Assembly (NCBI GenBank): GCA_020029475.1 | Contig: JAIBJG010000013.1 | Span: forward strand, 1-61,700 | Direction of reading: 5' to 3' | DNA length: 61,700 nt | Source: Methanobacteriota archaeon | GTDB lineage: Archaea; Thermoplasmatota; Thermoplasmata; RBG-16-68-12 | Shown: in pieces, positions 1 through 46,204 of the stretch | How the letters are laid out: every line of letters starts with the position of its first letter | Numbering within the stretch: the first letter of the stretch is position 1 | Notes under the pieces: model-generated | The model's database searches: none | Told to the model about the DNA's origin: nothing | What the model saw: the letters and a program-made list of their open reading frames with translations, nothing else | Made by a program: the position numbers and the translations under genes

Positions 1-169
1 GGCGGTCCGCAAGCTCAGGGTGCACCCCGCCCGCCAGGAGGGTGGTCCGGAACGCGCTCACGCCGGAGCGGCGCTTCTCGAGGAACCGGAGGAACCCCAT
101 CCCCATGCGGAGGGCGAGGGCGGGGACCTGGACGGCGAACACGAGGGGCAACCGGTCGCCCTCAGGCAT
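1..169 (-). CDS. Hypothetical protein, N-terminal fragment (gene runs off window start)
   Basis: ATG at 169 (minus) opens MPEGDRLPLVFAVQVPALALRMGMGFLRFLEKRRSG... with no stop before position 1. The start overlaps the stop of the 162..515 ORF by 8 nt (operon-like). It is too short in-window to appear in the ORF track. No family recognised. Confidence 0.3.
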   Translation of the reverse strand, partial: MPEGDRLPLVFAVQVPALALRMGMGFLRFLEKRRSGVSAFRTTLLAGGVHPELADR

Positions 170-515
170 CGTCCTCGTCCTTCCCCTTCATTTTCACGCG
201 GATCTCCCGCCGGTCTTCCTCCCCGCCCCGGTGGCGTCCTCGCTCGGACCCCACCGCCCCCTCGATGATCTTCCCGAGGTTCAGGGAGGACATGTACTGC
301 TCCGTGAGACGGAACGCTTGGTCGTCTGTCATCCCGCTGTCCTTCAGGGTGCGGTAGAAGTTCGCGACTGCCTGCCCGTACTTCTCCGCGGACTCCTTTC
401 CGTAAAGGACGTCCGTGAGGCTGTTCAGGAGGGCGGGGACCTTCTCCGAGAAGAGCCCCAGCATCTCCTTCATCTCTTCTGCGTTTGTTCGATGCGACTC
501 ACTCATCCTGTTCAC
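162..515 (-). CDS. Hypothetical small helical protein
   Basis: 117-aa ORF with natural composition (EEMKEMLGLFSEKVPALLNSLTDVLYGKESAEKYGQAVANFYRTLK...). It overlaps the end of the upstream wHTH regulator gene by 17 nt. No family recognised. Confidence 0.55.
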   Translation of the reverse strand: MNRMSESHRTNAEEMKEMLGLFSEKVPALLNSLTDVLYGKESAEKYGQAVANFYRTLKDSGMTDDQAFRLTEQYMSSLNLGKIIEGAVGSERGRHRGGEEDRREIRVKMKGKDEDDA

Positions 516-1017
516 CGTCCGATTTCGTACGTGACCGAGGGGTGTCCTCGTACTTAGGGAATCCGAGCACTTGTGACCAACGGCGCTCGACCTCCGGGGA
601 GACCCGGAACGTGCGGTTCCTCCCTTCCATGGACACGAGGACGAACCCCTGGCGGGCGAGCTCCTCGAGGCGCCTCCGGACGATCCGGCGGGAGGCGGTC
701 CCCCGCCGCTCCTTCACCGCGTCCGTGACCTGGGAGACGTTCCGGTCCCCCCGCTCGAGGAGGACCGCGACGATGTGGCGGGAGATGTCGTCCTTCACCT
801 CGGGGACCGCGAGCCCCGGGGAGACGCCCCCGTACCGCTGGACGAGGTCGAGGATCCGGACGTATCCCCGGGAGAGGCCCTGGAGCTGCTCGACGTACCC
901 GATGAGCTCCGCGTACGGCCTCGCCACCCTCGAGAACGCCTCCCGGAGGGACTCGATCTGCTCCCGGAGCTCGCGGAGGTCCCTTCGGATGTCCTCGCTT
1001 TCCATCCAGGGTCCCAT
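499..1017 (-). CDS. Winged-helix transcriptional regulator with N-terminal coiled-coil
   Basis: Start trimmed to the ATG at 1017 (MGPWMESEDIRRDLRELREQIESLREAF...). The C-terminal half looks like a wHTH (ISRHIVAVLLERGDRNVSQVTDAVKERRGTASRRIVRRRLEELARQGFVLVSMEGRNRTFRVS). The longer ORF-track start at 1215 adds R/A/G-rich sequence that looks non-coding. Confidence 0.65.
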   Translation of the reverse strand: MGPWMESEDIRRDLRELREQIESLREAFSRVARPYAELIGYVEQLQGLSRGYVRILDLVQRYGGVSPGLAVPEVKDDISRHIVAVLLERGDRNVSQVTDAVKERRGTASRRIVRRRLEELARQGFVLVSMEGRNRTFRVSPEVERRWSQVLGFPKYEDTPRSRTKSDGEQDE

Positions 1018-1389
1018 CCCTGCGGAGGGGCTTAACCCCGCGGTTCGGTCCCCTTGGGCGGCCCGGTGAGCGTCTGCTGGACCGCGACGTCCCGACGGAT
1101 CTCCCGCTCGCGGGCGCGCCCGAGATGCCATGCGATCATCCGCGTCTCCGATGCCCACGGACGTGCGGTCCATGTTCTTGTGCTGTGCGGTGATTTGTGA
1201 CCACCCGGCCCTCACGCGTGTTTCGCGGGAAAGGTTCTAGACGAGCGGACACGATGCGGACGCATGGTATCTCATGAGGGAGGCGCGTCCTCTGCGGACG
1301 GATCTCGTTCGTCCGGCTTGAGCAATGCATTGAGCACCTTTGCGGTCGTGTTGGCCGTGATCGCAATCGCCACATCGATCGCAATCTCG

Positions 1390-1554
1390 GGTCCAAGAGG
1401 AGATCCTGGAACACCAGGAACCGCGGGCGACACGGGACCACAGGGACCCGCAGGCCCTGGAGGCCCCACAGGACCACCAGGGTCGGACGGACTCCAGGGA
1501 CCGGGTGGGCCCGCCGGACCCCAAGGACCCGCCGGACCCCAAGGACCGGCGGGT
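1390..1554 (+). repeat. Collagen-like G-X-Y triplet repeat (18 triplets)
   Basis: [55 protein letters not shown] read directly from frame 1. Codons are enriched in GGA/CCA/CCT/AGA, unlike the GC3-rich surroundings. Confidence 0.85.
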
Positions 1555-1575
1555 TTCGGCCTCGAGCGTCCTGGT

Positions 1576-2434
1576 TTCGCGGTCACAGCCATCGACACCG
1601 CGGGCGACGTCGGGCTGTCCACCTCCGTGGCGATCGGATCGGACGGGCTCGGACTAATCAGCTATCAGGACCTCACGAACCACGACCTGAAAATCGCACA
1701 CTGCTCGAACGTGCGCGGCAATCGGCGGCGGGACTTCCGTGACAATCGGCGCCGACGGACTCGGGCTGATCACCTACGAGGGCAGCGGGAACCTCAAGGT
1801 GGCCCACTGCTCCAACGTCGGCTGCACGACGGCGGAAATCAGAACGCTCGACGGAGATCCCGTGGCGAACGTGGGCACGGGCAGCTCCATAACAGTCGGT
1901 GTCGACGGGCTCGGACTCATCAGCTACTGGGACGCCACGAACAGCGACCTCAAGGTCGCGCACTGCATCAACGTGTCCTGCGGGGGCGCGACCAACGTGA
2001 CTCTCGACTCCGCCGGCTCGGTGGGCTGGTGGACCTCCATCGCAATCGGGCGGGATGGACTCGGTCTCATCGCCTACTTCGATGACACGAATCGCGCCGT
2101 CAAGGTCGCCCATTGCGTGGACATGGCCTGCACCGCCGCTAACATCACAACGGTCGATTCCACCAGTCGGTTCAGCCAGGGGCTTTCCGTGACGATCGGT
2201 TCCGACGGATTCGGACTCATCTCCTACTATTACGAGGCCCTCCGGTACGACCTCAAAGTGGCCCACTGCTCGAACGTGCTCTGCACCGCGACGACCAGCG
2301 TGACTGTCGACGACCCGGTCGACGTGGGCTGGTTTAGTTCCGTTACGATTGGGACGGACGGGTTTGGGCTCATCAGCTACTTTGATTCCAACAACCTCGA
2401 CCTCAAAGTGGCTCACTGCTCGAACGTGTACTGC
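1576..2434 (+). repeat. Six tandem blade-like repeats of about 48 aa (blade 2 shortened)
   Basis: The consensus [37 protein letters not shown] recurs six times. Each unit is bracketed by conserved Cys residues. Unit 2 is only about 35 aa and coincides with the frameshift. Confidence 0.75.
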
Positions 2435-2597
2435 ATTCCCTACCATCGAAGTCGCTAGCATCCCCTAGCCGACATGAAGCGTACCAAGCGGGCCGCGGCA
2501 TAGGAGCCGTAGAGATCGCCCCCGTTTGGCGCCTGGGCCGGATCCGGATCTCGACACGTTCCGAACTCCGCGTCGTAGGGCGCACCTCATCCCTCGT

Positions 2598-4007
2598 CTA
2601 CGGCGACATGGGTGCGTCGTGGTCCGGGAGGATCGTCTCCGCGTTGCGGACCGCGCGAACGAAGTACCCGCCGATCCCCACGATCGCCCCGAGGGCGCCG
2701 AAGACGATCAGCATCAGGGCCATCCCGGCGCCCGGACCTGTCCCGACCGCCCACCCGAAGACGCCGGTGAGGCTCCCGCCGACCGCCATCGCGGGCTCGA
2801 AGACCCCGTCGGCAAGGGGGCCGGCGATCACCATCGCGGCGGGCGCCGTGATCTGCGCGATGAGTCGCCGAGCGGCGAACACCTTCCCCTGCACGTCCGG
2901 GGCGACCTTCGCCTGCCAGATCGCCTGGTTCGAGCCGTTGATGAACGGGAGGAGGAAGGACCCGGAGAACGCGGCAATCCCCCAGATCGCGACCTCCCGT
3001 CCGACGCCCATCAGGATCGAGCCGAGGATCCCGGCGAGGGCCATCCCGCCGAGGACCCCGTGGACCCGCCGCTTCGGCCCGCCCCAGAGGCTGAGGGCGA
3101 GCCCGCCCGCGACCCCGCCGATCGCCGCAATCGAGTTCACGGCGCCGAGGACGACGACGTCGTTGCCCGTGCGGGAGAGGATCATCGGGGTGACGACGAT
3201 GAACCCGAGGGGGAAGATGAAATTGATCAGGAAGAACACGAGCTGGAGCCCGAGGAGGCTCCGGCGGGCGGCGATGTACCGGAACCCGTACACGCTCTCG
3301 GAGAGGAGGCTGCCGCGGGCCTTCCGGCCCGTCTCCGTGACCGCGGGCTGCGGGATGTGGACCGCGAGGAGGATGGAGACCGCGATCACGAACGTGACGA
3401 TGTCGATCGCCAGGATCACCGCGATCCCCGGCCCCACCAGGAGGACCCCGAGGATCGCGGCCGCGAAGACCGGGGAGAAGACGCCGGAGATCGACTGGGC
3501 CGTGGAGAGCATCCCGCTCGCCCGCCCGTACTGGGACTTCGGGAGCATCGTGGAGACCGCCGCGGAGTATGCGGGCCACTGGAACGCCTCGAACGCGCCC
3601 TCGAAGGCCCCCAGGACGAACCAGTGCCACACCTGGAGGGCCCCCGGGAGGTAGAGGACCAGGAGGACGATCGTGCCGACCCCCGCCGCGAGGTCGCTGA
3701 GCATCATCGTGAGCTTCCGGTTCCACCGGTCCACGAGCGCGCCCGCGATCGGGCTCAAGATTACGGTCGGTGCAAAGCGGAAGAACGCCGCGAGGGCGAG
3801 GGTCGTCGCCTGGCCCGTCTGGAGGTACGCCCAGATCACGAGGGCGAAGCCCGTCATCCCCGTGCCGAGAAGGGAGAATGTCTGGCCCGCGCACACGAGG
3901 GTGAACGCGCGCATTCCACGGAGGCGGGGCGTCTTCGGTGCGGTGGGCTCCGTCGTGGCGTTCAGGCGGCGTACCTCCCCTCGGGTCCGGGGATCCGCGA
4001 GGCTCAA
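2598..4007 (-). CDS. MFS transporter (EntS/macrolide-efflux-like MFS_3 type)
   Basis: 469-aa polytopic membrane ORF (FTLVCAGQTFSLLGTGMTGFALVIWAYLQTG..., SPIAGALVDRWNRK motif). The start was taken as the TTG at 4007 because it overlaps the TGA of the upstream 30-codon ORF (TTGA). An alternative ATG lies at 3914. Confidence 0.8.
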   Translation of the reverse strand: MSLADPRTRGEVRRLNATTEPTAPKTPRLRGMRAFTLVCAGQTFSLLGTGMTGFALVIWAYLQTGQATTLALAAFFRFAPTVILSPIAGALVDRWNRKLTMMLSDLAAGVGTIVLLVLYLPGALQVWHWFVLGAFEGAFEAFQWPAYSAAVSTMLPKSQYGRASGMLSTAQSISGVFSPVFAAAILGVLLVGPGIAVILAIDIVTFVIAVSILLAVHIPQPAVTETGRKARGSLLSESVYGFRYIAARRSLLGLQLVFFLINFIFPLGFIVVTPMILSRTGNDVVVLGAVNSIAAIGGVAGGLALSLWGGPKRRVHGVLGGMALAGILGSILMGVGREVAIWGIAAFSGSFLLPFINGSNQAIWQAKVAPDVQGKVFAARRLIAQITAPAAMVIAGPLADGVFEPAMAVGGSLTGVFGWAVGTGPGAGMALMLIVFGALGAIVGIGGYFVRAVRNAETILPDHDAPMSP

Positions 4008-4096
4008 CGGATGAGCGGGGCGAACCCCGAGCGCACGTGGGAATCCAGGTACACCGTCATCTCGATTTCCTTTCGGACCGACTTGTCGCGGGACAT
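4004..4096 (-). CDS. 30-codon upstream ORF, copy 1 (MSRDKSVRKEIEMTVYLDSHVRSGFAPLIR)
   Basis: The ATG at 4096 lies 23 nt downstream of a TAAATA box. The stop TGA (4006..4004) overlaps the TTG start of the MFS gene. It is homologous (17/30 identical by hand alignment) to a second copy at 15188..15280. Confidence 0.5.
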   Translation of the reverse strand: MSRDKSVRKEIEMTVYLDSHVRSGFAPLIR

Positions 4097-4119
4097 AGTC
4101 CTCTGGAGATGCCCGCGGC

Positions 4120-4132
4120 TATTTAGGCGAGC
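4120..4132 (-). promoter_or_regulatory. TATA/BRE-like promoter core GCTCGCCTAAATA (copy 1)
   Basis: A 13-nt block identical to 15304..15316. The TAAATA box is followed by exactly 23 nt and then ATG, consistent with a leaderless transcript. Confidence 0.5.
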
Positions 4133-4219
4133 CTCAAGGGAGGGGGCGAGAGGGTCTACCGATGGGGGGACACCCGCAACCCCGGGGTTGAAAAACACGA
4201 TCGATCCCGCCCCGTGCCC

Positions 4220-4936
4220 CTACGAGACGACGACATCGATGAGGAGGAGCTCGGCGTCCGCGTCGGAAACGGTGGTGACGTCCTCCTCGTCCACGATCTT
4301 CGCGGCCCCGAACTGCGGGAGGGATTTGCCCGCCACCGTGATCGGCCCGCCCTCGACGACGTACAGGTACGCGCCGCGGTCCCGGGCAATCTCGTACTCC
4401 AGCGAGCGGCCGTTCTCGAGGAAGCTCGCGTGGACCTGGGCGTCCTGACGGATTGGGAGCGCACCCGGGTGCGTGTTCGAGACGAGGGGGAGCCACCGGT
4501 TCGTCCGCTCCGGCCGCTCCACCGCCTTCTGCTCCACGGAGGGATCGAGCCCCCTCTTCTCCGGGTGGAACCACATCTGGATGAAGCGCATCTCCACGTT
4601 CTTCTTGTGGTTGATCTCGGAGTGCCACATCCCGCGGCCCACGGTCGTGTGCTGGACCCAGCCTTTCTTCAGGATCCCGCCGACGCCGTGCTCGTCCGCG
4701 TGGCGGAACTCCCCCTCCGCGCAGTACGTGACGACCTCGATCTCCCGGTGCGGGTGGAGGGGCCATACGGAGCCCGGGGAGAGGGTGTCGTCATTGAACA
4801 CACGCAGGGTGCCGAACCCCATGTTCTCGGGGTCGTGGTGCTCGCCGAAGCTGAAGTGCCACCGGCCGAGGAACGTGCCGTCCTCGATGACGCCGCTCGC
4901 GAGGTAGATGTCCGCGGGCTTCCGGATCGTGATCAT
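4220..4936 (-). CDS. Pirin-family cupin protein (YhhW-like)
   Basis: WHFSFGEHHDPENMGFGTLRVFNDDTLSPGSVWPLHPHREIEVVTYCAEGEFRH matches the pirin N-terminal cupin and its metal-binding His pattern. The start is set at the ATG at 4936 (MITIRKP...). The ORF-track ATG at 5023 abuts the TATA box. Confidence 0.85.
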   Translation of the reverse strand: MITIRKPADIYLASGVIEDGTFLGRWHFSFGEHHDPENMGFGTLRVFNDDTLSPGSVWPLHPHREIEVVTYCAEGEFRHADEHGVGGILKKGWVQHTTVGRGMWHSEINHKKNVEMRFIQMWFHPEKRGLDPSVEQKAVERPERTNRWLPLVSNTHPGALPIRQDAQVHASFLENGRSLEYEIARDRGAYLYVVEGGPITVAGKSLPQFGAAKIVDEEDVTTVSDADAELLLIDVVVS

Positions 4937-5023
4937 CCCCCGCGCGACTCCGGGATTGGACTTGAACCTTGGGGGCGCGGGAAACAGACCAACATCTTGG
5001 TCCGGAGCGGAGACCCGCCGCAT

Positions 5024-5031
5024 CTATAAGT
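5024..5031 (+). promoter_or_regulatory. TATA-like box (CTATAAGT) upstream of the NFACT gene
   Basis: It is centred about 30 nt upstream of the ATG at 5058. The near-palindromic element could also serve the divergent pirin gene. Confidence 0.4.
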
Positions 5032-5057
5032 AAGCCGACCCGCTTCGGAACCGTCCC

Positions 5058-6953
5058 ATGAAGGAGGCCCTCACGTCCTTCGACCTCATGGCCCTCGTCG
5101 CGGAGTGGCAGGGCCTCGTCGCAGGGTTCGTCGACAAGGTGTACCAGGCGAAGGACGAGGTCACCCTCCGCCTCAACGTCCCCGGGGAAGAGCGGACGGA
5201 GCTGTACTGCAAGGCGGGGAAGTGGCTCGGCCTCCACAAGACGGAGGAGAAGCGCGAGACCCCGGGGCCATTCGCGATGGCCCTCCGGAAGACGATCGAC
5301 AACGCCCGCATCACCGCAATCGAGCAGCCGGGTTTCGACCGCGTCGCAATCCTCCGCCTCGAGAAGGGGGCGACGTACGATCTCGTCTTCGAGATGTTCG
5401 GGAAGGGGAACATCATCCTCGTCCAGGGCGGGAACACGGTCGCCGCGATGCGGACGCAGTCCTTCAAGGGCCGCCAGATCCGGCCCGGGATCGCGTACGA
5501 CTTCCCGCCTCCCGGGACGAACCCTCTCGAGCTCGACCGACAAGGCTTCCACAAGGCGGTCCGGTCCGCAAAAGGGCAGATCGTGAAGGTCCTCGCGTCC
5601 CCCCTGAACCTCGGCGGCACGTACGCGGAGGAACTGTGCCTCCGGGCGGGCGTCACGAAGGACGCGACCGTCGCCTCCCTGAAGGACGCGGACTTCGACG
5701 CCCTCTTCACCGCCCTGAACAACCTCGCCGTGGCGGTGGAGCAGGAGCGCCGGCCCGCCGTCATCCTCGATGGCGGGAAGCCGATCGATGCCGTCCCGAT
5801 CGATCTCCTGATCCACGCGGGGAAGGAACGGCGGGAGTCTCCCACGTTCAACGACGCCCTTTCGTCCTACCTCTCCTCGCTGGCCGCGGAACCCTCCGTC
5901 GCCACGAAGGACGCGACCGCCACCCTCCGGCATCGGATCGAGCAGCTGAAGGAGAACCTTGAGTCCCTCCGGAGGGAGGCGATGGCGGCGGAGGCGAAGG
6001 CGCTGTTCCTGTACAACCACTTCCCCCTCTTCGAGGAGCTCCTCCGGGCGGCGCGGGAGGGCCGCGCGTTCGACGGGGCCCAGATCAAGGGCGTGGACAA
6101 GGAGCGGCACACGGTCACCGTCGCGATCGGGGACTTCGACGACCTGGAGCTCGACTACGACAAGGACGTGAACGGGAACGCGCAGGCTCTATACGAAGCC
6201 CGGCGGGAGGCGCTCCGGAAGGCGGAGCGCGTCGTGGAGGCGATCCAGGCCGCGGAGGACGAGGTCCGCATCGTGGAGAAGAAGGCGGTGCGCGCGGCGA
6301 AGCGCCCGAAGGTGAAGCCCACGAGGCGCCTGTGGTTCGAGGCGTACCGCTGGACCCTCTCCTCGGAGGGATTCCTGATCCTCGGCGGGCGGGACGCGAA
6401 GACGAACGACGCCCTCGTCCGGAAGCACCTGAAGGAGGGAGACCGGTACGCGCACGCGGACGTCCACGGGGCCCCGAGCGTCGTCGTGAAGGACGGGGCG
6501 AAGGCGGGGGAGGCAACCCTGCGGGAGGCGTGCGAGTTCGCCCTGATCTACTCGAAGGCGTGGCCCGCGGGGCTCTCGAGCGGGAGTGCGTTCTGGGTCC
6601 TCCCGGAACAGGTGAGCAAGCAGGCGGAGAGCGGGGAGTTCCTTCCGCGGGGCGGGTTCGTCGTGCGGGGGAAACGGAACTACGTCCACGACATCCCCGT
6701 CCAGATGGCCGTCGGCGAGGTCGAGGTCGAAGGGCACCGCAAGGTGATGGGGGGCCCCGTGAGCGCCCTCGCGGCGCGATCGACGAGGTACGTCGTCCTC
6801 CGCCCTGGGGAAATGGACCGCGACCGGCTCGTCGCGAACCTCGCGAAGGCGTTCGAGGTTCCCGAGGAGGAGGTCTCCCGCGTCCTCCCGTCAGGAGGGT
6901 TCGCGATCCTGAAGGTCCATGGCCTGGAACTCGGGCTCGACGCGGCGGGCTGA
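5058..6953 (+). CDS. NFACT-family ribosome quality-control protein (Rqc2/RqcH/FbpA homolog)
   Basis: 631 aa. It has an NFACT-N-like N-terminus, a central coiled coil, and an NFACT-R/DUF814 block (FLILGGRDAKTNDALVRKHLKEGDRYAHADVHGAPSVVVK). Confidence 0.85.
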   Translation: MKEALTSFDLMALVAEWQGLVAGFVDKVYQAKDEVTLRLNVPGEERTELYCKAGKWLGLHKTEEKRETPGPFAMALRKTIDNARITAIEQPGFDRVAILRLEKGATYDLVFEMFGKGNIILVQGGNTVAAMRTQSFKGRQIRPGIAYDFPPPGTNPLELDRQGFHKAVRSAKGQIVKVLASPLNLGGTYAEELCLRAGVTKDATVASLKDADFDALFTALNNLAVAVEQERRPAVILDGGKPIDAVPIDLLIHAGKERRESPTFNDALSSYLSSLAAEPSVATKDATATLRHRIEQLKENLESLRREAMAAEAKALFLYNHFPLFEELLRAAREGRAFDGAQIKGVDKERHTVTVAIGDFDDLELDYDKDVNGNAQALYEARREALRKAERVVEAIQAAEDEVRIVEKKAVRAAKRPKVKPTRRLWFEAYRWTLSSEGFLILGGRDAKTNDALVRKHLKEGDRYAHADVHGAPSVVVKDGAKAGEATLREACEFALIYSKAWPAGLSSGSAFWVLPEQVSKQAESGEFLPRGGFVVRGKRNYVHDIPVQMAVGEVEVEGHRKVMGGPVSALAARSTRYVVLRPGEMDRDRLVANLAKAFEVPEEEVSRVLPSGGFAILKVHGLELGLDAAG

Positions 6954-7009
6954 CCGGCGGGGCTTCCCGGCAAAGGTTCTCATACCTCGCCCCGGTAGGA
7001 ACCGGTGCC

Positions 7010-7894
7010 ATGGGCGCACGACTCCGCACCGCGGGACTCTTCTTGCTCCTGACGATGATCTTCGTCGGATTCGGCTGGATCATCGGCAGCGTGTTCTTCG
7101 GGAACTGGCTCTCAACCGTCCTCCTCTTCCTCGTCTTCGCGGGGCTGATGAACGGAATCTCGTACTTCTTCGCCGACCGGATCGTCCTCTGGTCGTACCG
7201 GGCCCGCCCGGTGACGGAGGCGGATGCACCGGCCCTCTATCGGGTCGTCCAGAGGGTCGCCGCAATGAGCAACCTTCCGATGCCCCGGGTGTACACCGTG
7301 CCCTCCGCGACCCCGAACGCGTTCGCGACGGGGCGGAACCCGAAGCACGCCGTGGTCGCGGTGACGGAGGGCGCCTTCCGGGTTCTGAACGAACGGGAGC
7401 TCACCGCCGTGATCGCGCACGAGATGGCCCACGTGAAGGACCGGGACATCCTCGTGATGTCTGTCGCGGCCACGATCGCGGGCGCCCTCACGATCCTCGC
7501 GCGGTGGGCGTTCTGGAGCACGCTGTTCGGCGGGGGTCGCCGGGACCGGGAGGGGAACGCCCTCATGTGGGTCCTTGCGATCGTGGGACTGATCCTCGTG
7601 CCGATTGCGGTCGTCCTCATCCAGCTCGCGATCTCTCGGAGCCGGGAGTACAAGGCCGACTATGTCGGGGCAAAGACGATCGGCGCGCCCGACGCGCTCG
7701 CGGACGCGCTGGAGCAGCTCGAGTACCGGAACCGCCTGAACCCGATGGACTTCGGAAGCCCCTCCTCTTCCAGCCTGTGGATCGTCAACCCGTTCGCGGG
7801 GAACTGGCTGTCCCGGATCCAGTCGACCCACCCGCCGGTCGACAAGCGGATCCGAAAGCTCCGCCTCCTCGCTCAAGGGCAGGATACGTACTGA
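7010..7894 (+). CDS. htpX: Zinc metalloprotease HtpX (M48 family)
   Basis: HEMAH zinc motif (VIAHEMAHVKDRD), four TM segments, C-terminal STHPPVDKRI. The start is set at the ATG at 7010. The upstream part of the ORF is R/G/P-rich non-coding-looking sequence overlapping the NFACT gene. Confidence 0.9.
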   Translation: MGARLRTAGLFLLLTMIFVGFGWIIGSVFFGNWLSTVLLFLVFAGLMNGISYFFADRIVLWSYRARPVTEADAPALYRVVQRVAAMSNLPMPRVYTVPSATPNAFATGRNPKHAVVAVTEGAFRVLNERELTAVIAHEMAHVKDRDILVMSVAATIAGALTILARWAFWSTLFGGGRRDREGNALMWVLAIVGLILVPIAVVLIQLAISRSREYKADYVGAKTIGAPDALADALEQLEYRNRLNPMDFGSPSSSSLWIVNPFAGNWLSRIQSTHPPVDKRIRKLRLLAQGQDTY

Positions 7895-38490: not shown

Positions 38491-40914
38491 TCAGAAGAAG
38501 TCCTCCAGGGTGAGCTCTTTCTTCGTCTTCTGCACCTCCAGCTTCCGGGGCTTCTCCTCCTCGCCCTCGAACCCCGTGTGGAACAGGTCCGCCTGGACCG
38601 TGCCCATCAGGAGGGCCCGTTCGTCCCAGCCGTAGATCTCCGTGACGTACGACAGGGTCTGCGCGACCCGCCGGGCGTAGTACTCCCAGTCCGGCTTCGA
38701 CGTGAAGGGGCGGCCCGAGACCCATGGCTCCACGTGCATCGGGGCCTTCTTCGCGTCCACGACGACCCAGGAGACCTTCATCCCGGGGACGACCTCGTAC
38801 CCAAGTTCTTTCATCTTCCGGGCCGCGAGGACGTTCGACATCGAGTCCGGGTTCACGTACCGGCTGTCCTCCGCGACGGTGCGGGAGATCACGAGGGGCT
38901 CCAACGGGTCCCCGTCGTCGGGCAGCATGTCCTGCGGGATCCGGCCCGTCTTGATCTCCGCGACGAGCTCCTTCGCGAGCCGCACGGCCCCCTCGATGTC
39001 GTTCTCGAGGACCCGGTCGAACACCCGCTTCTGGGCCTCGCTCTGGAGGTCGAACGCGTCCGTCCTCCGGATCTCGTACCCCCGGACGATGAGTTCGTCC
39101 TCCACGGGCCATGCGGTCTTCGCGGCGTACCGCTTCTTCTTCCCGTGGCTGAAGAACGTGCGGAAGATCCGCTCGAGCTCCATGTTCACGTTCGCGGTGC
39201 TGAACCGCTCCGCCACCTTCCGTCCGAACTCGAGGGACTTCTCCTTGTCCTTGTGCGGGCTTTCCAGGAAGATGGAGTCCGTGTCGCTGTAGATTACCCG
39301 CACTCCGTCCGCCTCGAGCTGGCTGATCACGGACTTGATGTTCTCCCGTGCGAAGGCGGTGATGCTCGCCCCGATCTGGGGGTTCGTGAATCGGTAGAAC
39401 GAGGAGGCGAGGACGCCGTAGAAGGCGTTCATCAGGACCTTCACCGCGTCCTGGAGACGGCCATAATACTTCTTCCTCTCCGGGTCCGTCTCGGCTTTCA
39501 GTTTCGCCTTCACATCCCGTCGTTGCCGCATCAGGTCCCCGAGGATCGTGGGCAGGAGGCCGACCCGCTGCTGCGCGTTCAGGAAGCGCACGCCAATGGG
39601 GCTCTCGACGGTCCCCGCGTCGCTCAGGGTCGTGAAGCATATGTTCTTCTCGATAATAATCGACGGATACATCGAAGAGAAGTCGAGGGCGATCACCCAT
39701 TCGTAGAGCCCGGGCTCCAGGCTGTGGACGTACCCGCCCTCGATCGACTTCCCGCCGGAGCCCGAGCGGGTCATCGGGACCGCGACCCCCTGCCGGTCCG
39801 CGGCCCGGATCAGGATCGAGTCAATCATCGTGGACGTGCGGCTGTTGAACGTGTCGTCGACCGGGAGCTTCGAGACGACGCCGAGGTCCATCGCCTTGTC
39901 GAGGCGCGCGACCTTCTCGAGGACCCGGAGGGCGAGCTCCGCATCCTTTTTGCAGTACTCCAGGACCTTCTCCCGGTTCCGGGCCCACTCGTCCTCCATG
40001 TGGACCCGGTCCACGTCGTGCTTCCCCTCGCCGAGGAGCCACCGGGCGACCGCGTCCAGGGTCTCCTGCTTCGGGTGGAGCTCGAGTTTCACCGCCCACC
40101 ACGCGTCCGCGATGATCCGCCCGTGGGCCCGCCAGAACCGTTCGCTGATGTTGCTGATCCCCTGCCCGTCCCGGGAGAGCGGCAGGTTCATGATCCCGTG
40201 GACACGCGCCCGCTGCTCGAGGATCGGGAGGTCGTACCCGTCGATGTTGTACCCCGTGATCACGTCCGGGTCCATCTTCGTGATGAAATCGATGAACCGA
40301 CGGATGATCTCCTTCTCGTCTCCCGTGAGGATGTCCGTCTTCAGGGCGCCGTCCTCCCGCCACGCGAGGCCGAGGCACAGGACCGTCGGGTCCGTGATCG
40401 TGTTCTCGATGTCGAAGGAGACGACCTTCAGGGCGGGGTTGAACACCTCGCAGGGCTCGAACCGCTCCGCCCGGACGACGAGGTCCGTCGTGTACCGGCC
40501 CTTCGCGAGCGCGCCATGGATCCGGACGCACGCGGCGATGTCCATGTCGTAGATGAAGCGATGCGCGAACGGGATGTCCGCCGCCATCACCTCGGACCCG
40601 TGCTTGCGGGCCCGCTCCCGGTATTCGGGGGTCTTCCACGGGTGCTGGAGGGTGACCTTCGCGCACGGCGCCTTGCGGCCCTGGACCTCGAGCTCGACGG
40701 TCTCCACTTTCAGGACCTCGGAGTCCCGCTGGAGGTAGTTGAGGAGGACCTGCGAGGGCCTCACCGCGTAGAAATACGGCTTGAAGCCCCAGTACTCCGC
40801 CGCGATCGACCGGCCCTCCCGGGTCCGCCCGAAGAGCTCGATCACGGGCTCCTCCTGCGGCCCGTCCCGGCGGTACGACGCCGTCAGTATCCGAACGTCC
40901 CAGGACTCCGTCAT
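38491..40914 (-). CDS. polB: Family B DNA polymerase
   Basis: Exo I FDIEN, Exo II YNIDGYDLPIL, Pol A DFSSMYPSII, Pol B KVLMNAFYGV, Pol C YSDTDS. 807 aa with no intein-sized insertion. The ATG at 40914 overlaps the upstream GTPase stop (ATGA). Confidence 0.95.
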   Translation of the reverse strand: MTESWDVRILTASYRRDGPQEEPVIELFGRTREGRSIAAEYWGFKPYFYAVRPSQVLLNYLQRDSEVLKVETVELEVQGRKAPCAKVTLQHPWKTPEYRERARKHGSEVMAADIPFAHRFIYDMDIAACVRIHGALAKGRYTTDLVVRAERFEPCEVFNPALKVVSFDIENTITDPTVLCLGLAWREDGALKTDILTGDEKEIIRRFIDFITKMDPDVITGYNIDGYDLPILEQRARVHGIMNLPLSRDGQGISNISERFWRAHGRIIADAWWAVKLELHPKQETLDAVARWLLGEGKHDVDRVHMEDEWARNREKVLEYCKKDAELALRVLEKVARLDKAMDLGVVSKLPVDDTFNSRTSTMIDSILIRAADRQGVAVPMTRSGSGGKSIEGGYVHSLEPGLYEWVIALDFSSMYPSIIIEKNICFTTLSDAGTVESPIGVRFLNAQQRVGLLPTILGDLMRQRRDVKAKLKAETDPERKKYYGRLQDAVKVLMNAFYGVLASSFYRFTNPQIGASITAFARENIKSVISQLEADGVRVIYSDTDSIFLESPHKDKEKSLEFGRKVAERFSTANVNMELERIFRTFFSHGKKKRYAAKTAWPVEDELIVRGYEIRRTDAFDLQSEAQKRVFDRVLENDIEGAVRLAKELVAEIKTGRIPQDMLPDDGDPLEPLVISRTVAEDSRYVNPDSMSNVLAARKMKELGYEVVPGMKVSWVVVDAKKAPMHVEPWVSGRPFTSKPDWEYYARRVAQTLSYVTEIYGWDERALLMGTVQADLFHTGFEGEEEKPRKLEVQKTKKELTLEDFF

Positions 40915-42101
40915 GCCTTCGCCACGATCTTGATCACGTCGCCATCCTGGACCGCATAGTCGTGCCCGACGACCATCCTGGTGCGGGCGTTGATGGCGCG
41001 GATGAACCCTCTTCCGAGGTCCGTATGCACGCGAAACGCTAAATCCTTCGCAGTCACACTGCGCGGGACGAGGAACGCGTCGGGCAGGACGTTCCCCTTC
41101 TTGTCCGTCCAGTGCGTCTCGTCCTCCACAGGGAACACGACGATCAGGTTCAGGAGGTCCCGCCCCGCGCGCTCGATGCACGGCTGCACCCCCGTGGACC
41201 CGTGGGTCCCGAGGAACGCCTCGATCTTCTTCAGGCCCGCGAGCTGCTCCGCGGAGAGTTTCCCGGGGTCCAGGATCCGGAACGACGGCGCCCCGGGCTC
41301 GTACGCGATGAGCCCCGCCTTCGCGGCGCGCCGGAGCGCGAGCTCGTACGCGGCGGCCGTCGGGACGACGATCGTCCCCGCCTCCTTCGTCAGCCGCTCG
41401 ATCGCCTCGGCGGGAGCAATGTCCGCCTTGTTCGCGGCGACCATCATCGGCTTCCCCCGCTGGAGGATCCGCTTCGAGAGCCGGAGGGCGTCCTCCGCGG
41501 TCCACTTCGAGGGGCGCGGGTCCATCCCCGCCTCCAGGAGGGCGGTGTGGATCTGGTTCTCCGTCACGCCGAGCCCCGCGAGCCGATCGTGGAGGACGCG
41601 TTCGATCGGGGTCTCCTCGAGCTCCGCGCGCCGGGCGACCTTCTCCAGGTCCCGCGAAAGGATCCCCCGGACCCAGTGCGCGAGCTCATCCTCCAAGAAC
41701 CGCACGTCTTCGAGGGGGTCGTGGGTCCCGGGTTTCACGGGGTTCCCCTCGAAGTCCGTGGACCCGCTCGCGTCCACGACGTGGATGAACGCGGCGGCCT
41801 GGCGGAGATCGTCGAGGAACTTGTTCCCGAGGCCCCGCCCTTCGTGGGCCATGGGGACCAGGCCCGCGACGTCGAGGACGTCCACGGGGACGAACCGCTT
41901 CCCGTCCTGGCAGCCGCCGTGGATCGGCGCGCACGGCTTCCCGAGTTCCACGTGCGGGCACGGGACGCGGATGAACGCGACCCCGCGGTTCGGTTCGATC
42001 GTCGTGAACGGGTAGTTCGCGATCTGCGCAGGGGCCAGCGTCGCGGCGGAGAAGAACGTCGACTTCCCCACGTTCGGCTTCCCGACGATCCCGAGTTCCA
42101 C
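40911..42101 (-). CDS. Obg-like GTPase/ATPase with C-terminal TGS domain (YchF/OLA1/Drg-like)
   Basis: G1 GKPNVGKST, YPFTTIEPN, DVAGLV, NKAD, and a TGS-like VQDGDVIKIV end. The start was moved to the GTG at 42101, about 29 nt downstream of TTTATTTG. The TTG at 42128 lies inside the TATA box. Confidence 0.88.
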   Translation of the reverse strand: MELGIVGKPNVGKSTFFSAATLAPAQIANYPFTTIEPNRGVAFIRVPCPHVELGKPCAPIHGGCQDGKRFVPVDVLDVAGLVPMAHEGRGLGNKFLDDLRQAAAFIHVVDASGSTDFEGNPVKPGTHDPLEDVRFLEDELAHWVRGILSRDLEKVARRAELEETPIERVLHDRLAGLGVTENQIHTALLEAGMDPRPSKWTAEDALRLSKRILQRGKPMMVAANKADIAPAEAIERLTKEAGTIVVPTAAAYELALRRAAKAGLIAYEPGAPSFRILDPGKLSAEQLAGLKKIEAFLGTHGSTGVQPCIERAGRDLLNLIVVFPVEDETHWTDKKGNVLPDAFLVPRSVTAKDLAFRVHTDLGRGFIRAINARTRMVVGHDYAVQDGDVIKIVAKA

Positions 42102-42143: not shown

Positions 42144-45100
42144 TCAGGGGGACCCGCGATCGCGTCTCCGGCCCCTCCGGAGGGCCAGCACGACGACCAG
42201 GACAAGCGCCGCGGGAACCGCGACCTCGTGGAACTCCGGGAGCGGGACCGGGCCGCCGTCGGTCCGGGTCGACGGGGGATCCGCGGAACGTGTGACGATC
42301 ACGTCTGTGACGTCTCCGTTCCCGGACCAGTCGCTCGTCTGGAACGCCATCCGCGTGCCGTTCAGCTGGGACGGGTTCAGTCCGATGGAACCCTCCATCG
42401 CGGTCGTGTTCTTCGCGACCTGCAGCGAGAGGAGGGCGGGCACCCAGCCCGATTGCCATCGGAACAAGTCCTGGCGGGTCATCCTGCCATTCGACCCGCG
42501 GACTTCCACCATGTAATCGGCGAGCATGCCGGCGAACGGGAGCCCCGCGGTATCCGTCGCGTTCGAATCGATGTACACCCGCGCGATGTCCTCGCCCGTG
42601 ATCCTCGGAGGGGGAGAGCCGGATCCCCCGCCACCGCCGCCCCCGCCCTGGACCGCGCGAGGGACCTTCTGCGGGACGGGGACGCCCTCGACGAGCGCGC
42701 CCGCGACCTGGAGCATGAAGAACGTGCCGGACGCGTTCGCGGCTCCTCCGTGGGACCGGATGTCCAGCCCCGCCCGGGGGATCGCGACGGAATCGGAATC
42801 GAGGACCGTGAGGCCGGCCCAGTCCGCGAACAGCCCGTCGATCCGGATCCCCGCCGGCGGGGCGAGGAAGTACGCGTCGAGCCCGGGACCGGTCACGGTG
42901 ACGGGGCGCGGGGCGGGCGCGGACCGGAGGGCGACGGAGACGGGGGAGCCGGAGGGGAATCCCGTCACGGTGACGGAGACCGTCACGGACGCCGTCGGGG
43001 TGGCCCGCATGAGGGGGACCGTCGAGAGGGATGGACTCACCGTGACCCCGGTCGTCGCGGTGAACCCGAAGGGACCCACGACCCACGTGCTCCCCTCTGG
43101 GATCTGTCCCAGGGCGACGACGTCGAGCCGGAGGGCCTGGGTCGTCCCGGACGGGAGGACGGTGGCGAGGGGGGTCTGCCGGATCCGGATCGCTCCGAAC
43201 GTCGCGGAGAGGGCGACGCTCGCGCGGGACACGGACCCCTCGAAGTCGTCCGCGACGATGAGGATCGTCGAGACGCTCGTGGAGAACGCGGCGAAGTCGT
43301 CCGTGGAGACCCGGAACTCGAGGGTCGGCCCGGAGGCCGCGGCGGGGAGCCCCGCGACCGCGGCCCGGCGGCTCCAGTTCAGCTCCGCGTTCGCCGGGAA
43401 CTCAAAGAGGCGGGCGGACTCCACGCGGCCCGAGCCGCCGAGGACCTCCGCGACGTACTCCGCCCCGAGGGCCTGCACCTGGTACCCCGTCACGGCGGAC
43501 CCGTCCGCGTCGAAGAACGCGTAGAACGCGTCGTTCCCCACGGAGTCCCCGAGGGCCGTGCCGGAGACCTGGACGAGGAACGAGAGGAGATTCCCCTCCG
43601 GGTAGACGCCGTACGACTGGATTGTGACGTTGGGGTTCGAGGCTGCCGCCGGATCCGAGTACCTGGGGAGGGCGGACCAGTCCGTCGGGTTCCCGTCGAT
43701 CGCGACCGCGGTCGCGGGGCCCGTCGGGGGCGGGAGGAGGGCGGCGACGATCGCGAACACGAGCAGAAGGGAGCCCGCGATCACGCCGTACCGGAACAGG
43801 AGGGACCGCGGCGGGAGACCGAAGTCCGTGATCGCGCTCGTGTCCATGAACCCGAAGCCGTTCACGAGGCCGTTCACCCGGCCGCTCCCGTTGATCAGGC
43901 CGTGACCGTTGATGAGACCGCGGCGGAGGCGGGTCTGCGGGGCGGGGAGGACGCGGGCGCGGGGCGCCGGCGCCTCCATCGGGCGGCGGGGCGGGGGCTC
44001 CGGGACGACTTCCGGCTCGGCCTCCGGCGTCTCCTCGTCGAGCTCCTCCACGTCGACCTCCTCCCCGGGCACCGGGATGGGTTCTGGAGCGCGCTTCGGT
44101 GTGAATTTCGGGATGAGCTCCGGAGAGGGCTCCGGCTCCTTCGCCGGCGCCGGGGCGAGATCGCGGTCGGCGGGCGCCTGCTGGAAGATCCTCTCCAGTT
44201 CCTTGATTGCGACGAGCTCCGGCGTGAGGGGCTCGTCCGGCTCTGCCGGCTCCGCCGCCGGCGCGGGCGGCGCCTCGACGTCGAGCTCCTCCGCGGGCAC
44301 GCGGGGGGCGGCCTCGGGCTCGACCTTGTGGCCGCACGCCGGGCACACCTGCGCATCCGGAAGGACGCCCTCCCCGCAGATCGGGCACTCCCGTTCCGCG
44401 AGGGAGGACAGGGCCGCAAGGGCGTCCGTGGCGGCCTCGACCTCCTCCTCTGGGGGCCTCTCTTGCTCCGGCGGAGCGGCCGCCAGGGCCTCCCCCGCCA
44501 CAGGGATCGTCCTTAGGGTCCCGCGGAGGACCTGGGACGCCTGTTTAATCTCCCGCATCGCTGCGAGGACCCGGGAGCGGACCGTCATCACCCGCCGGGA
44601 CTCGGGGTCGAGGCGGGCCGCCATGTCGATGGAGCGCATCGCCTCCTGGAGCTCCTGGATGTCGAGCAGGACGAGGGCCCGGGCGTACCACAGGTCCCCG
44701 TCCTTCGGGGTCTCCTCGAGGTGGACGTCGTAGAACGCGAGGAGTCCCTTCTCGAGCTCCTTCGTGACCTCCCGCCGGAGCTCGTCGTCAATCTCCTCCT
44801 CGTCGAACACCGCCCCGCAGTCCGAGCAGCCCTTCGCGAACAGGGACGTGACGCACTCGCACAGGGGGCACGCGTACTCCTCGGAGAGGACCTCCTCCTT
44901 CGACTTCCGTCGCGGGAGGAGGAGGATGAACCGGAGGGAGTCCTTCACCATCTTCGCGCCGCGGGGTCCGATCAGCCGGACCCGTCCGAGCTCCTCGTCG
45001 GACGCCCGCTTGATCCGCCATATCGCGTTGTACCCCGCGCGGCACAGGGCCTCCGCCTTCGCGCGCCCCACGCCGGGGATCCGGGCGATCTCGTCCACGT

Positions 45101-45479
45101 CCGCGTCCGTGTACTCGCCCCGGATCTTCCGCTTCGGACGCACCTTCTTCGCGGCCGGCGCGCCTGCCGCCTCCTCCTCGAAGACGGCGCCGCAGGCGGG
45201 ACAGGACTTCGCGTCCGCGTCGACGAACGTGCCGCACAGGAGGCACGCGAACTGCTCCTTGTGGGGGCCCGCGACCTCCTCGAACAGGAACCGGTTGTCG
45301 CACTTCTCGCACACGAAGAGGGTGGGGTTCTCCGTCTTGCACTCCGTGCACACGATCCGGCGGTCCACCTCCGTCGAGTCCGCGCGGACCGCGACGCTCC
45401 CGCACGTGTTGCAGATGGAGACGGGGACGACCTTTGAGGCGCAGTTCGGACAGGGGCGCACGTCCGCGGTGCGGACCAT
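42144..45479 (-). CDS. 1111-aa multi-zinc-ribbon / HhH / TPR-like / TM protein with a large extracytoplasmic domain and a PEF-CTERM-like tail
   Basis: The real start is the ATG at 45479 (MVRTADVRPCPNC...). The upstream part of the 1296-aa ORF is antisense-frame overlap with the TPR gene. It has ten CxxC pairs, HhH-like IARIPGVGRAKAEAL, a Pro/Glu linker, GLING-type mini-repeats, the TM helix LLFRYGVIAGSLLLVFAIVAALL, two IDGxxxDW-containing regions, and a C-terminal PEF+TM+RRGRRR. Confidence 0.8.
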   Translation of the reverse strand: MVRTADVRPCPNCASKVVPVSICNTCGSVAVRADSTEVDRRIVCTECKTENPTLFVCEKCDNRFLFEEVAGPHKEQFACLLCGTFVDADAKSCPACGAVFEEEAAGAPAAKKVRPKRKIRGEYTDADVDEIARIPGVGRAKAEALCRAGYNAIWRIKRASDEELGRVRLIGPRGAKMVKDSLRFILLLPRRKSKEEVLSEEYACPLCECVTSLFAKGCSDCGAVFDEEEIDDELRREVTKELEKGLLAFYDVHLEETPKDGDLWYARALVLLDIQELQEAMRSIDMAARLDPESRRVMTVRSRVLAAMREIKQASQVLRGTLRTIPVAGEALAAAPPEQERPPEEEVEAATDALAALSSLAERECPICGEGVLPDAQVCPACGHKVEPEAAPRVPAEELDVEAPPAPAAEPAEPDEPLTPELVAIKELERIFQQAPADRDLAPAPAKEPEPSPELIPKFTPKRAPEPIPVPGEEVDVEELDEETPEAEPEVVPEPPPRRPMEAPAPRARVLPAPQTRLRRGLINGHGLINGSGRVNGLVNGFGFMDTSAITDFGLPPRSLLFRYGVIAGSLLLVFAIVAALLPPPTGPATAVAIDGNPTDWSALPRYSDPAAASNPNVTIQSYGVYPEGNLLSFLVQVSGTALGDSVGNDAFYAFFDADGSAVTGYQVQALGAEYVAEVLGGSGRVESARLFEFPANAELNWSRRAAVAGLPAAASGPTLEFRVSTDDFAAFSTSVSTILIVADDFEGSVSRASVALSATFGAIRIRQTPLATVLPSGTTQALRLDVVALGQIPEGSTWVVGPFGFTATTGVTVSPSLSTVPLMRATPTASVTVSVTVTGFPSGSPVSVALRSAPAPRPVTVTGPGLDAYFLAPPAGIRIDGLFADWAGLTVLDSDSVAIPRAGLDIRSHGGAANASGTFFMLQVAGALVEGVPVPQKVPRAVQGGGGGGGGSGSPPPRITGEDIARVYIDSNATDTAGLPFAGMLADYMVEVRGSNGRMTRQDLFRWQSGWVPALLSLQVAKNTTAMEGSIGLNPSQLNGTRMAFQTSDWSGNGDVTDVIVTRSADPPSTRTDGGPVPLPEFHEVAVPAALVLVVVLALRRGRRRDRGSP

Positions 45480-46204
45480 CAGCCCTCCCCTCCCTCCGCG
45501 CGGGCCCGCTCGAGGGCCTCGACAGCCTCCGCGAAGTCGGGCCGCAGGTCGATCGCCTTCTCCAGGCAGATCACCGCCGGGTCCGGCTGTCCGGATTCCA
45601 GGAGCGCACGTCCCTTGAAGTACCAGGCGTCCGGGAGGTCCGGCCGTCGCCGGAGGGCGACGTTGTACACGTCGATCGACTCCTCGTATCGGCCGAGGGC
45701 GAAGAGAGAGGACGCCCGGTTGAACGCGGCGAGCGCGAACGCGGGGTCCGCCTCGAGGGCCTTGTTGTAGAGCTCCAGGGCCTCCTCGTGCTCCCCCTGG
45801 CGGGAGCGGAGGACCCCCTTGTCCATCAGCGCGACGGGGTGGCGGGGGTTCACCTTGAGGACTGTGTCGAAGCACTCGAGGGCCCGGTCCAGCCGGGCCA
45901 TGTGCATCAGCGCGATCCCCTTGTTGCACCACGCCTCGAGGTACGCGGGGCGGAGGCGGATCGCGCGGTTGTGGCACTTCAGGGCCTCCTCCGGCTTCCC
46001 GAGGGTCTCGAGGATGATCCCGCGGTTGTTCCACGCGGCCTCGTTGTCCGGGTCGATGTCGAGCGCCTTGTTGAACGCCTTCATCGCGGCCGCGAGCTCG
46101 CCGCGGCGGAGGAGGTGGTTCCCGCGGGCGACCTCCCTCCGGGCCCGCTGCGCCTTCGTGAGGCCAAAGGGTGCCCTAGCCAATCGCACGATTCGACCGA
46201 GCAT
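45479..46204 (-). CDS. TPR-repeat protein
   Basis: Six or seven 34-aa TPR units (AAAMKAFNKALDIDPDNEAAWNNRGIILETLGKPEEALKCHNRAIRLRP...). The stop overlaps the start of the 1111-aa gene (TGATG). The exact start is uncertain because the TATA-like box is only about 14 nt from the ATG. Confidence 0.85.
   Translation of the reverse strand: MLGRIVRLARAPFGLTKAQRARREVARGNHLLRRGELAAAMKAFNKALDIDPDNEAAWNNRGIILETLGKPEEALKCHNRAIRLRPAYLEAWCNKGIALMHMARLDRALECFDTVLKVNPRHPVALMDKGVLRSRQGEHEEALELYNKALEADPAFALAAFNRASSLFALGRYEESIDVYNVALRRRPDLPDAWYFKGRALLESGQPDPAVICLEKAIDLRPDFAEAVEALERARAEGGEG

Follow-up and report, generated by a model that had tools for sequence, protein, structure and literature searches.

We analysed a window of 61,700 nucleotides (nt), positions 1 to 61,700 of contig JAIBJG010000013.1 (assembly GCA_020029475.1) from an archaeon of the Thermoplasmatota, and found that its positions 1264-2458 on the forward strand carry a gene for a membrane anchor, a collagen-like stalk of Gly-X-Y (G-X-Y) triplets and a head of propeller blades, and that a defined segment of the head is missing. 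The gene is a member of an uncharacterised and very large family, which has no good Pfam model and whose members are built with seven blades. We consider it fairly likely that what the locus holds is the damaged gene of a type II anchored, collagen-stalked propeller surface protein, the function of which would most likely be the binding of a ligand such as a glycan. The window gene is probably an inactivated member of this large uncharacterised family, in which a known principle of display is combined with a propeller repeat for which Pfam has no model, and the copy itself adds little beyond pointing to the family.

Gene layout and the missing segment

The protein is split over two overlapping open reading frames (ORFs), 1264..2085 in frame 1 and 1739..2458 in frame 2, and reading across the frame change yields a repaired protein of 398 amino acids (aa). 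The parts of the gene and the evidence for each are as follows.

1264-2458 (+): gene for the anchor, stalk and propeller protein, in two overlapping ORFs
1264..1329 (+): start codon (first ATG of the ORF) and short N-terminal segment, aa 1-22, probably cytoplasmic
1330..1389 (+): single transmembrane helix or signal anchor, aa 23-42; hydrophobic stretch in the sequence, modelled by AlphaFold as helix 20-38
1390..1560 (+): collagen-like stalk, aa 43-99; regular-expression (regex) count, PF01391, collagen matches in the PDB, TRF, and G+C content at third codon positions (GC3)
1561..1713 (+): linker and complete propeller blade 1, up to 'KIAHCSNV'; alignment with intact relatives (A1), four modelled strands (E106-145)
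1705..1725 (+): junction and frame change (+1); three-frame translation, gap in alignment A1, dip in the predicted local distance difference test (pLDDT), end of contig L084
1712..1825 (+): truncated blade without its first strand; translation, motif positions, alignment A1
1826..2434 (+): four complete blades (52, 50, 51 and 50 aa), each closing with H-C-x4-C; blade split, pLDDT >90
2435..2458 (+): C-terminal tail IPYHRSR and stop codon; survey of the tails of 120 homologues

An earlier note made from the letters of this DNA had described a transmembrane helix, 18 G-X-Y triplets and six Cys-bracketed repeats in this gene, and all of them are present there; its division of the protein into anchor, collagen-like stalk and globular head was likewise supported, both by the parts of the sequence and by AlphaFold models. 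The regex count gave 18 uninterrupted triplets, or 19 if GFG is counted, the latter set against the minimum of 6 contiguous Gly-X-Y triplets in the definition of PMC11923368. The Pfam Collagen model (PF01391; IPR008160) was passed marginally, with 27.3 bits at a cut-off of 27.2 (E 3.2e-6), and this collagen part was the only one recognised when the repaired protein was scanned against Pfam and NCBIfam. A sequence search of the PDB with the single protein likewise returned only collagens or noise, the G-X-Y part alone being matched. The N-terminus resembles those of P0045, an intact homologue (45% identity over 40 aa), and of the copies carried by a Thermoplasmata metagenome-assembled genome (MAG; locus L003). 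The repeats of the head are about 50 aa long, each with DG-LGLISY ... DLKVAHC-x4-C, and the six 'AHC' motifs of the repaired protein, at aa 145, 181, 233, 283, 334 and 384, are spaced by 50-52 aa with the exception of the first gap, which measures 36 aa. The end of the protein, YCIPYHRSR, fits the family tail 'FC[VI]PY.RRR' found in the survey of 120 homologues. No second copy of the gene was found in the window.

The irregular first gap coincides with a change of reading frame. Three-frame translation revealed that 'AHCSNV' in frame 1 runs straight into frame 2 sequence at about 1705-1725, and alignment A1 has a gap of 61-63 columns in the window protein exactly at the frame change. Compared with the intact relatives, the window protein is missing the linker between the blades, blade 2 in its entirety and the opening strand of blade 3, so that what remains is a damaged seven-repeat array with six motifs, one blade of which is short of a strand. 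The earlier note had noticed the frameshift but had overlooked the absent blade; the design that it read as six repeats is truly one of seven blades. Counted on P0001, a seven-blade head extends over about 365 aa from the end of the G-X-Y segment to the C-terminus, as compared with 302 aa in the window. In the AlphaFold model of the repaired protein the complete blades had pLDDT values above 90, whereas aa 147-152, at the junction, fell below 50. The window copy has neither an uninterrupted reading frame nor a closed seven-blade propeller.

The lesion is most simply explained by the loss of about 188 nt (62 codons and 2 nt) in one deletion. Given that about 188 nt are missing and that the frame is shifted, we concluded from the sequence that the window copy is probably a pseudogene, most likely making no functional protein. 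Programmed frameshifting was considered and rejected, since the lesion also removes about 62 codons of conserved structure. A scan of metagenomes provided three contigs of the same population with which the junction could be compared.

L084: window 1-1705, 100% identical; ends at 1705, 6-10 nt ahead of the junction
L088: window 1-1565, 100% identical; ends at 1565
L086: window 2108-4689, 99.88% identical; begins at 2108

None of these three independent contigs spans 1705-2108, so that the deletion is seen in one assembly only and is neither borne out nor contradicted by them. The frame change and the missing blade could instead be an assembly mis-join in a region that is hard to assemble, the gene of the organism being intact and seven-bladed. 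That all three contigs break within the gene, and that L084 matches the window perfectly and stops just ahead of the junction, is in favour of such a mis-join. The junction, however, is out of register, 'AHCSNV' meeting the second strand of a later blade, whereas a collapse of repeats would have joined them in register. In addition, identity between the blades at the level of DNA is only about 65-74%, the longest exact repeat among them is 15-16 nt, and TRF detected no blade repeat. Because of the out-of-register join, the low DNA identity of the blades and the absence of a blade repeat detectable by TRF, simple repeat collapse is unlikely. Moreover, breaks of the contigs are equally expected if intact and deleted alleles coexist in the population; the breaks of L084, L086 and L088 in the gene suggest either strain-level heterogeneity or assembly trouble specific to this gene. 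On balance we lean towards a real deletion, whether in a pseudogene or in one allele of a mixed population, and hold a mis-join to be possible but less probable.

Two further observations concern this stretch. Inside the G-X-Y segment, at window positions 1510-1547, TRF detected an 18-nt unit duplicated in tandem without a mismatch (CCCGCCGGACCCCAAGGA x 2.1), which is a sign of recent slippage. Long antisense ORFs, 1272-1622 (-) and 1673-2461 (-), overlap the gene, and the former reads G-X-Y-like because GGN and CCN codons are self-complementary; both are artefacts of composition and not genes.

The seven-bladed head and its family

To the fold of the head the intact homologue P0045, a metagenome protein from JGI that shares the N-terminus of the window protein, was the better guide. 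Its AlphaFold model, built with a 120-sequence alignment, contains 28 strands, i.e. seven blades of four, with a pLDDT of about 97 for the head. The ten best matches of this model in the PDB, as found by Foldseek, were all seven-bladed PLL/PHL lectins of Photorhabdus (E 1e-13 to 1e-12), with template modelling scores of 0.67-0.73 normalised to the lectin and identities of 12-17%; GH145 glycosidases, the CV39L lectin and LGI1 EPTP came next. The repaired window protein gave generic propeller matches only. Together, the AlphaFold propeller, the seven four-stranded blades of P0045 and its lectin matches bear out the propeller-like head suspected in the earlier note, while the likeness to C1q that it had also drawn was wrong, the head being a propeller and not a jelly-roll trimer. 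Similar to the P0045 head, the PLL/PHL lectins (PDB 5c9o, 6rgg, 8q83, 5mxg) consist of seven four-stranded blades that derive from internal repeats. Unlike the window protein, they are soluble and have neither an anchor nor a collagen stalk, and the H-C-x4-C motif is specific to the family of the window protein.

Searching with the head alone, we found 1,455 homologues at E<=1e-3 in a 90%-clustered collection, with a best value of 3e-160; the best homologues were 40-58% identical over the head and typically 480-500 aa long. An exhaustive phmmer search of 1.84 billion representatives gave 9,356 clusters at E<=1e-3 and 2,207 at E<=1e-30. Seven H-C..C motifs were present in 93 of the 120 best matches. 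Stalks of at least six G-X-Y triplets were carried by 46 of these 120 and by 29 of the 63 genes from genome loci, and their length across the genes of the family ranged from 7 to 63 triplets. The proteins of this uncharacterised VAHC-x4-C seven-blade family (P0001, P0009, P0027, P0045 and the L003 copies, as well as a gene of Candidatus Lucifugimonas marina JH545, L035) share with the window protein the blade motif and the C-terminal tail and, in about 40% of the members, the N-terminal anchor and G-X-Y stalk. The window copy differs from them in having six motifs instead of seven, a blade without its first strand and a frameshift.

A blade consensus derived from 292 blades showed the same conserved residues in all seven blades. 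The two cysteines of a blade were both present in 1,342 cases, both absent in 33 and unpaired in only 17, with C-x4-C spacing in 1,335. That the cysteines are kept or lost jointly fits a disulfide in what would be an exported domain.

The taxonomic spread of the homologues proved overwhelmingly bacterial. Among species genomes of GTDB, 78 of 79 loci had bacterial or unassigned titles, and the remaining one was the Thermoplasmata MAG (L003); the bacterial carriers were Dehalococcoidia/SAR202, Anaerolineales, Nitrospirota, Actinomycetes and Thermoanaerobaculia. L003 carries two intact tandem paralogues, at 3364-5133 and 5335-7092, of 589 and 585 aa, with the layout of the window gene: a short N-terminus, a transmembrane helix and, directly after it, 63 or 38+ G-X-Y triplets, followed by seven blades and a tail that is basic. 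Tandem paralogues are frequent in the family, with two in L003 and three each in L014, L037 and L044. The earlier note had called collagen-like repeats uncommon in archaea; this rarity was overstated in view of at least 9,356 clusters for the head, of the stalks found in over a third of the best matches and of the intact tandem copies in Thermoplasmata. Archaeal collagen-like domains have, in addition, already been catalogued, with the QGP triplet typical of archaea (PMC11923368), and this triplet is abundant in the window stalk and in L003.

Several members depart from the common layout. Giant multi-propeller proteins (P0121, 5999 aa; P0156, 7237 aa; P0126, 4301 aa; P0251, 4003 aa) show up to 9-11 separately matched stretches of the same blade repeat. 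A Cys-bracketed insert rich in Asp, Asn and Gly (CWDLNGNG.GDPATED.NGD....DC) breaks up the collagen region of the L003 gene at 5335-7092 (aa ~88-130) and of P0045 (aa 66-96; L080 6001-7431); it looks like a dockerin or thrombospondin-type calcium-binding loop and is absent from the window copy. The conserved tail FC[VI]PY.RRR (window 2432-2455) terminates the protein, and given that no hydrophobic segment follows, it is no known C-terminal sorting signal. A tail without Cys (FG[IA]PY..) was considered as an archaeal marker and rejected, as P0028, which has that tail, lies on a bacterial contig.

Existing annotation of the family was of little help. DUF1936 (PF09151), a model of 34 positions with a cut-off of 25 bits, gave no match to the window protein at E<=1. 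The assignment of homologues (P0002, P0004, P0013 and P0078) to DUF1936 is probably a motif-level coincidence over 'DLKVAHC' and was rejected, because they passed the score only when many partial matches, all to model positions 13-30, were added up. The public DUF1936 annotations and the JGI names Sec61beta, MreC and Roadblock/LC7 given to members of the family look spurious. L091, from the metagenome scan, turned out to be an unrelated collagen protein and no member of the family. Literature searches on the motif LKVAHC, on collagen in Thermoplasmata and on collagen in SAR202 turned up no paper.

Proposed design and its alternatives

In its intact form, known from relatives, the protein is ordered as short, probably cytoplasmic N-terminus, transmembrane helix, G-X-Y stalk, propeller of seven blades with four strands each and basic C-terminal tail, each blade of about 50 aa being closed by a conserved H-C-x4-C pair. 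The N-terminal helix would anchor the chain with its N-terminus inside and its C-terminus outside, an orientation that we infer from the signal-anchor-like N-termini of bacterial homologues, from the collagen segment and from the 14 cysteines that occur in pairs. The G-X-Y segments of three membrane-held chains would coil around one another as a triple helix about 16 nm long (57 residues at the rise of 0.286 nm per residue of the collagen triple helix), and this stalk would hold three propeller heads off the cell surface. The head would bind a repeated ligand such as a glycan, so that the protein would act as a stalked adhesin or a ligand-capture protein. Binding of a repeated ligand appears most likely because each of the seven blades has the same polar residues and the solved folds closest to the head are those of multivalent propeller lectins; tandem-repeat propeller lectins offer repeated binding sites (PMC6943638, PMC5584973). 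The likely role would be that of a trimeric stalked surface binding protein.

The same order of parts, i.e. cytoplasmic tail, transmembrane helix, collagen and globular binding head, is found in the colmedins and transmembrane collagens of animals, which offer the closest analogy in function. Gliomedin is a trimer of type II transmembrane chains with a collagen domain and a C-terminal olfactomedin domain, and animal transmembrane collagens and gliomedin both have this anchor-collagen-head design and trimerise (PMC2064815). In the window protein the helix at aa 23-42 likewise stands directly before the G-X-Y segment, as in a type II anchor followed by a collagen domain, the presumed orientation being that given above. 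Unlike colmedins, the window protein lacks a juxtamembrane coiled coil, a furin site and a system for prolyl hydroxylation, and Pfam matched no olfactomedin domain in it at E<=1. Olfactomedin is a five-bladed propeller, whereas the head of the window family is seven-bladed. The resemblance to colmedins is one of analogy, not of homology. A further comparison is with the bacterial collagen-like surface proteins (Scl1/Scl2, Lcl, BclA), in which a prokaryotic G-X-Y stalk likewise presents a globular domain. The NCBIfam models NF038329, NF038330 (Scl) and NF046116 (Lcl) reached 29.7, 23 and 25 bits as compared with cut-offs of 325, 400 and 500, and did so through the G-X-Y part only, as did BclA in the PDB sequence search. 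Unlike Scl, the window protein has no LPXTG (it ends with CIPYHRSR) and carries its anchor at the N-terminus, and its head is a propeller, whereas BclA has a C1q-like jelly-roll and Scl a helical V domain.

A number of results weigh against the proposed design. The resemblance in fold is of a generic kind that seven-bladed propellers have in common, glycosidases and sialidases being matched too, and a family profile searched against all PDB sequences had a best E of 0.11, with no PLL/PHL match at E<=1. Since the profile found no meaningful PDB sequence match, the relation of the head to the PLL/PHL lectins, as judged from the models, is at the level of fold only. The G-X-Y region remained unmodelled in monomer predictions of both the window protein and P0045 (pLDDT <50), and the positive-inside rule is weak for the N-terminus of the window protein itself. 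Finally, when all ORFs of 80 loci were clustered, no neighbour gene proved to be conserved across clades, synteny being clade-local only, and none thus hinted at a function. Comparison of the window with all fetched loci by blastn and tblastn gave no match outside the gene, and neither did tblastx of L080 against L003.

Given that Foldseek also returned sialidases, the GH145 enzyme BT3686, GH43 enzymes and lactonases (E 1e-7 to 1e-11), we considered that the head could be an enzyme displayed on a stalk, e.g. a sialidase-like protein, a GH145-like glycosidase or a lactonase. The conservation of the same residues in all seven blades is, however, typical of repeats with a structural or multivalent-binding role and not of one asymmetric active site. 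Lectins rank first for the intact model of P0045, and enzyme families in Pfam or NCBIfam gave no match; an enzyme is thus very unlikely. The protein could also be mainly structural, forming a hair-like nap or a spacer layer similar to the filaments of BclA and having no specific ligand. The frequent tandem paralogues and the highly variable length of the stalks would suit such a layer, as would the fact that Thermoplasmata often have no rigid cell wall. Yet surface-type polar residues are strongly conserved in every blade across phyla, suggesting a conserved interaction, and we regard a purely structural role as unlikely.

If the design of a stalked binding protein is true, a very large family without useful annotation, common in SAR202/Chloroflexota, Nitrospirota and Actinomycetota and present in some Thermoplasmata, would consist of stalked multivalent cell-surface binding proteins. 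Prokaryotes would then have made independent use of the logic of anchor, collagen stalk and propeller head known from colmedins and transmembrane collagens, and the family would open a way to study how uncultured microbes in the environment adhere to particles, polymers or other cells. Going further, the window could represent one allele of a widespread, undescribed prokaryotic class of anchored, collagen-stalked trimeric seven-bladed lectins, a counterpart of colmedins and collectins that Chloroflexota, Nitrospirota, Actinomycetota, Acidobacteriota and Thermoplasmata share via ancient inter-domain transfer; the deletion and the contig breaks would in that case reflect strain-level on/off or blade-number variation under diversifying selection. 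This wider proposal is tentative and, taken as a whole, doubtful.

Codon usage, origin and host contig

The earlier note had pointed to GGA and other codons of the G-X-Y region that contrast with the host genes, and this contrast is real. GC3 was 0.47 in the G-X-Y segment, as compared with 0.80-0.82 in the head and 0.90 +/- 0.06 in 54 genes of the window, and GGA accounted for 13 of the 22 Gly codons of the segment as compared with 12% in the background. Its suggestion that these codons hint at foreign origin did not hold. In all 29 G-X-Y-bearing homologous genes, from hosts of 36-74% GC, the GC3 of the G-X-Y segment was below that of the gene's own head (e.g. 0.54 vs 0.87 in L003, 0.30 vs 0.51 in L035 and 0.61 vs 0.86 in L044), indicating that the dip is a property of DNA that encodes Gly-Pro-rich triplets and no mark of recent transfer. 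The cause may be that A or T at the third position avoids long runs of G and C. The odd codon usage is therefore a general trait of G-X-Y-coding DNA.

Recent acquisition of the gene from bacteria or a virus, flagged by atypical codons, was weighed nonetheless. The G-X-Y and N-terminal segments are in the lowest ~2% of windows of the same size in codon fit, and with a family so overwhelmingly bacterial, transfer between the domains at some time is plausible. The head, in contrast, has an ordinary codon fit (z = -1.2, with lower scores in 3 of 47 genes), the dip in GC3 is universal among the G-X-Y-bearing homologues, and the gene is flanked by housekeeping genes (a major facilitator superfamily transporter, pirin and RqcH), with no integrase, transposase or other mobile-element gene found next to the locus. 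Only one viral locus was detected among 2.9 million viral contigs. The Thermoplasmata copies, moreover, share with the window gene the transmembrane helix that leads straight into G-X-Y and a similar N-terminus, arguing for residence in the lineage. We hence consider a recent foreign acquisition quite unlikely. The strong bacterial bias of the family makes an old transfer between the domains plausible; in a ranking of the nearest relatives over the last 205 aa, bacteria and archaea alike were 48-61% identical, so that a source lineage could not be separated.

Viral origin was rejected, with the one locus in IMG/VR and generic propeller matches only in BFVD. This sole member from the viral collection (L081 1-1566; IMGVR_UViG_2508501111_000002) lies at the very end of a 34-kb contig and encodes a protein of 521 aa that has a signal peptide, blades of degenerate sequence and an additional domain at its C-terminus; the locus may belong to host DNA beside a prophage.

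That the host is an archaeon, as the earlier note had taken it to be, was confirmed by genes in the window for a thermosome, an archaeal-type RqcH, CDC48 and a family B DNA polymerase. The predicted proteome is non-acidic and the host is therefore no halophile. A bacterial-type DnaK gene, with a short ORF next to it, lies beside that of a thermosome subunit in this archaeal contig (18083-19963, 19947-20516 and 20946-22595, all on the minus strand). Elsewhere, an ORF of 1,296 aa at 42144-46034 (-), with zinc ribbon and helix-hairpin-helix motifs and no NCBIfam match, adjoins the family B DNA polymerase gene at 38491-41505 (-), and parts of both have atypical codon usage.

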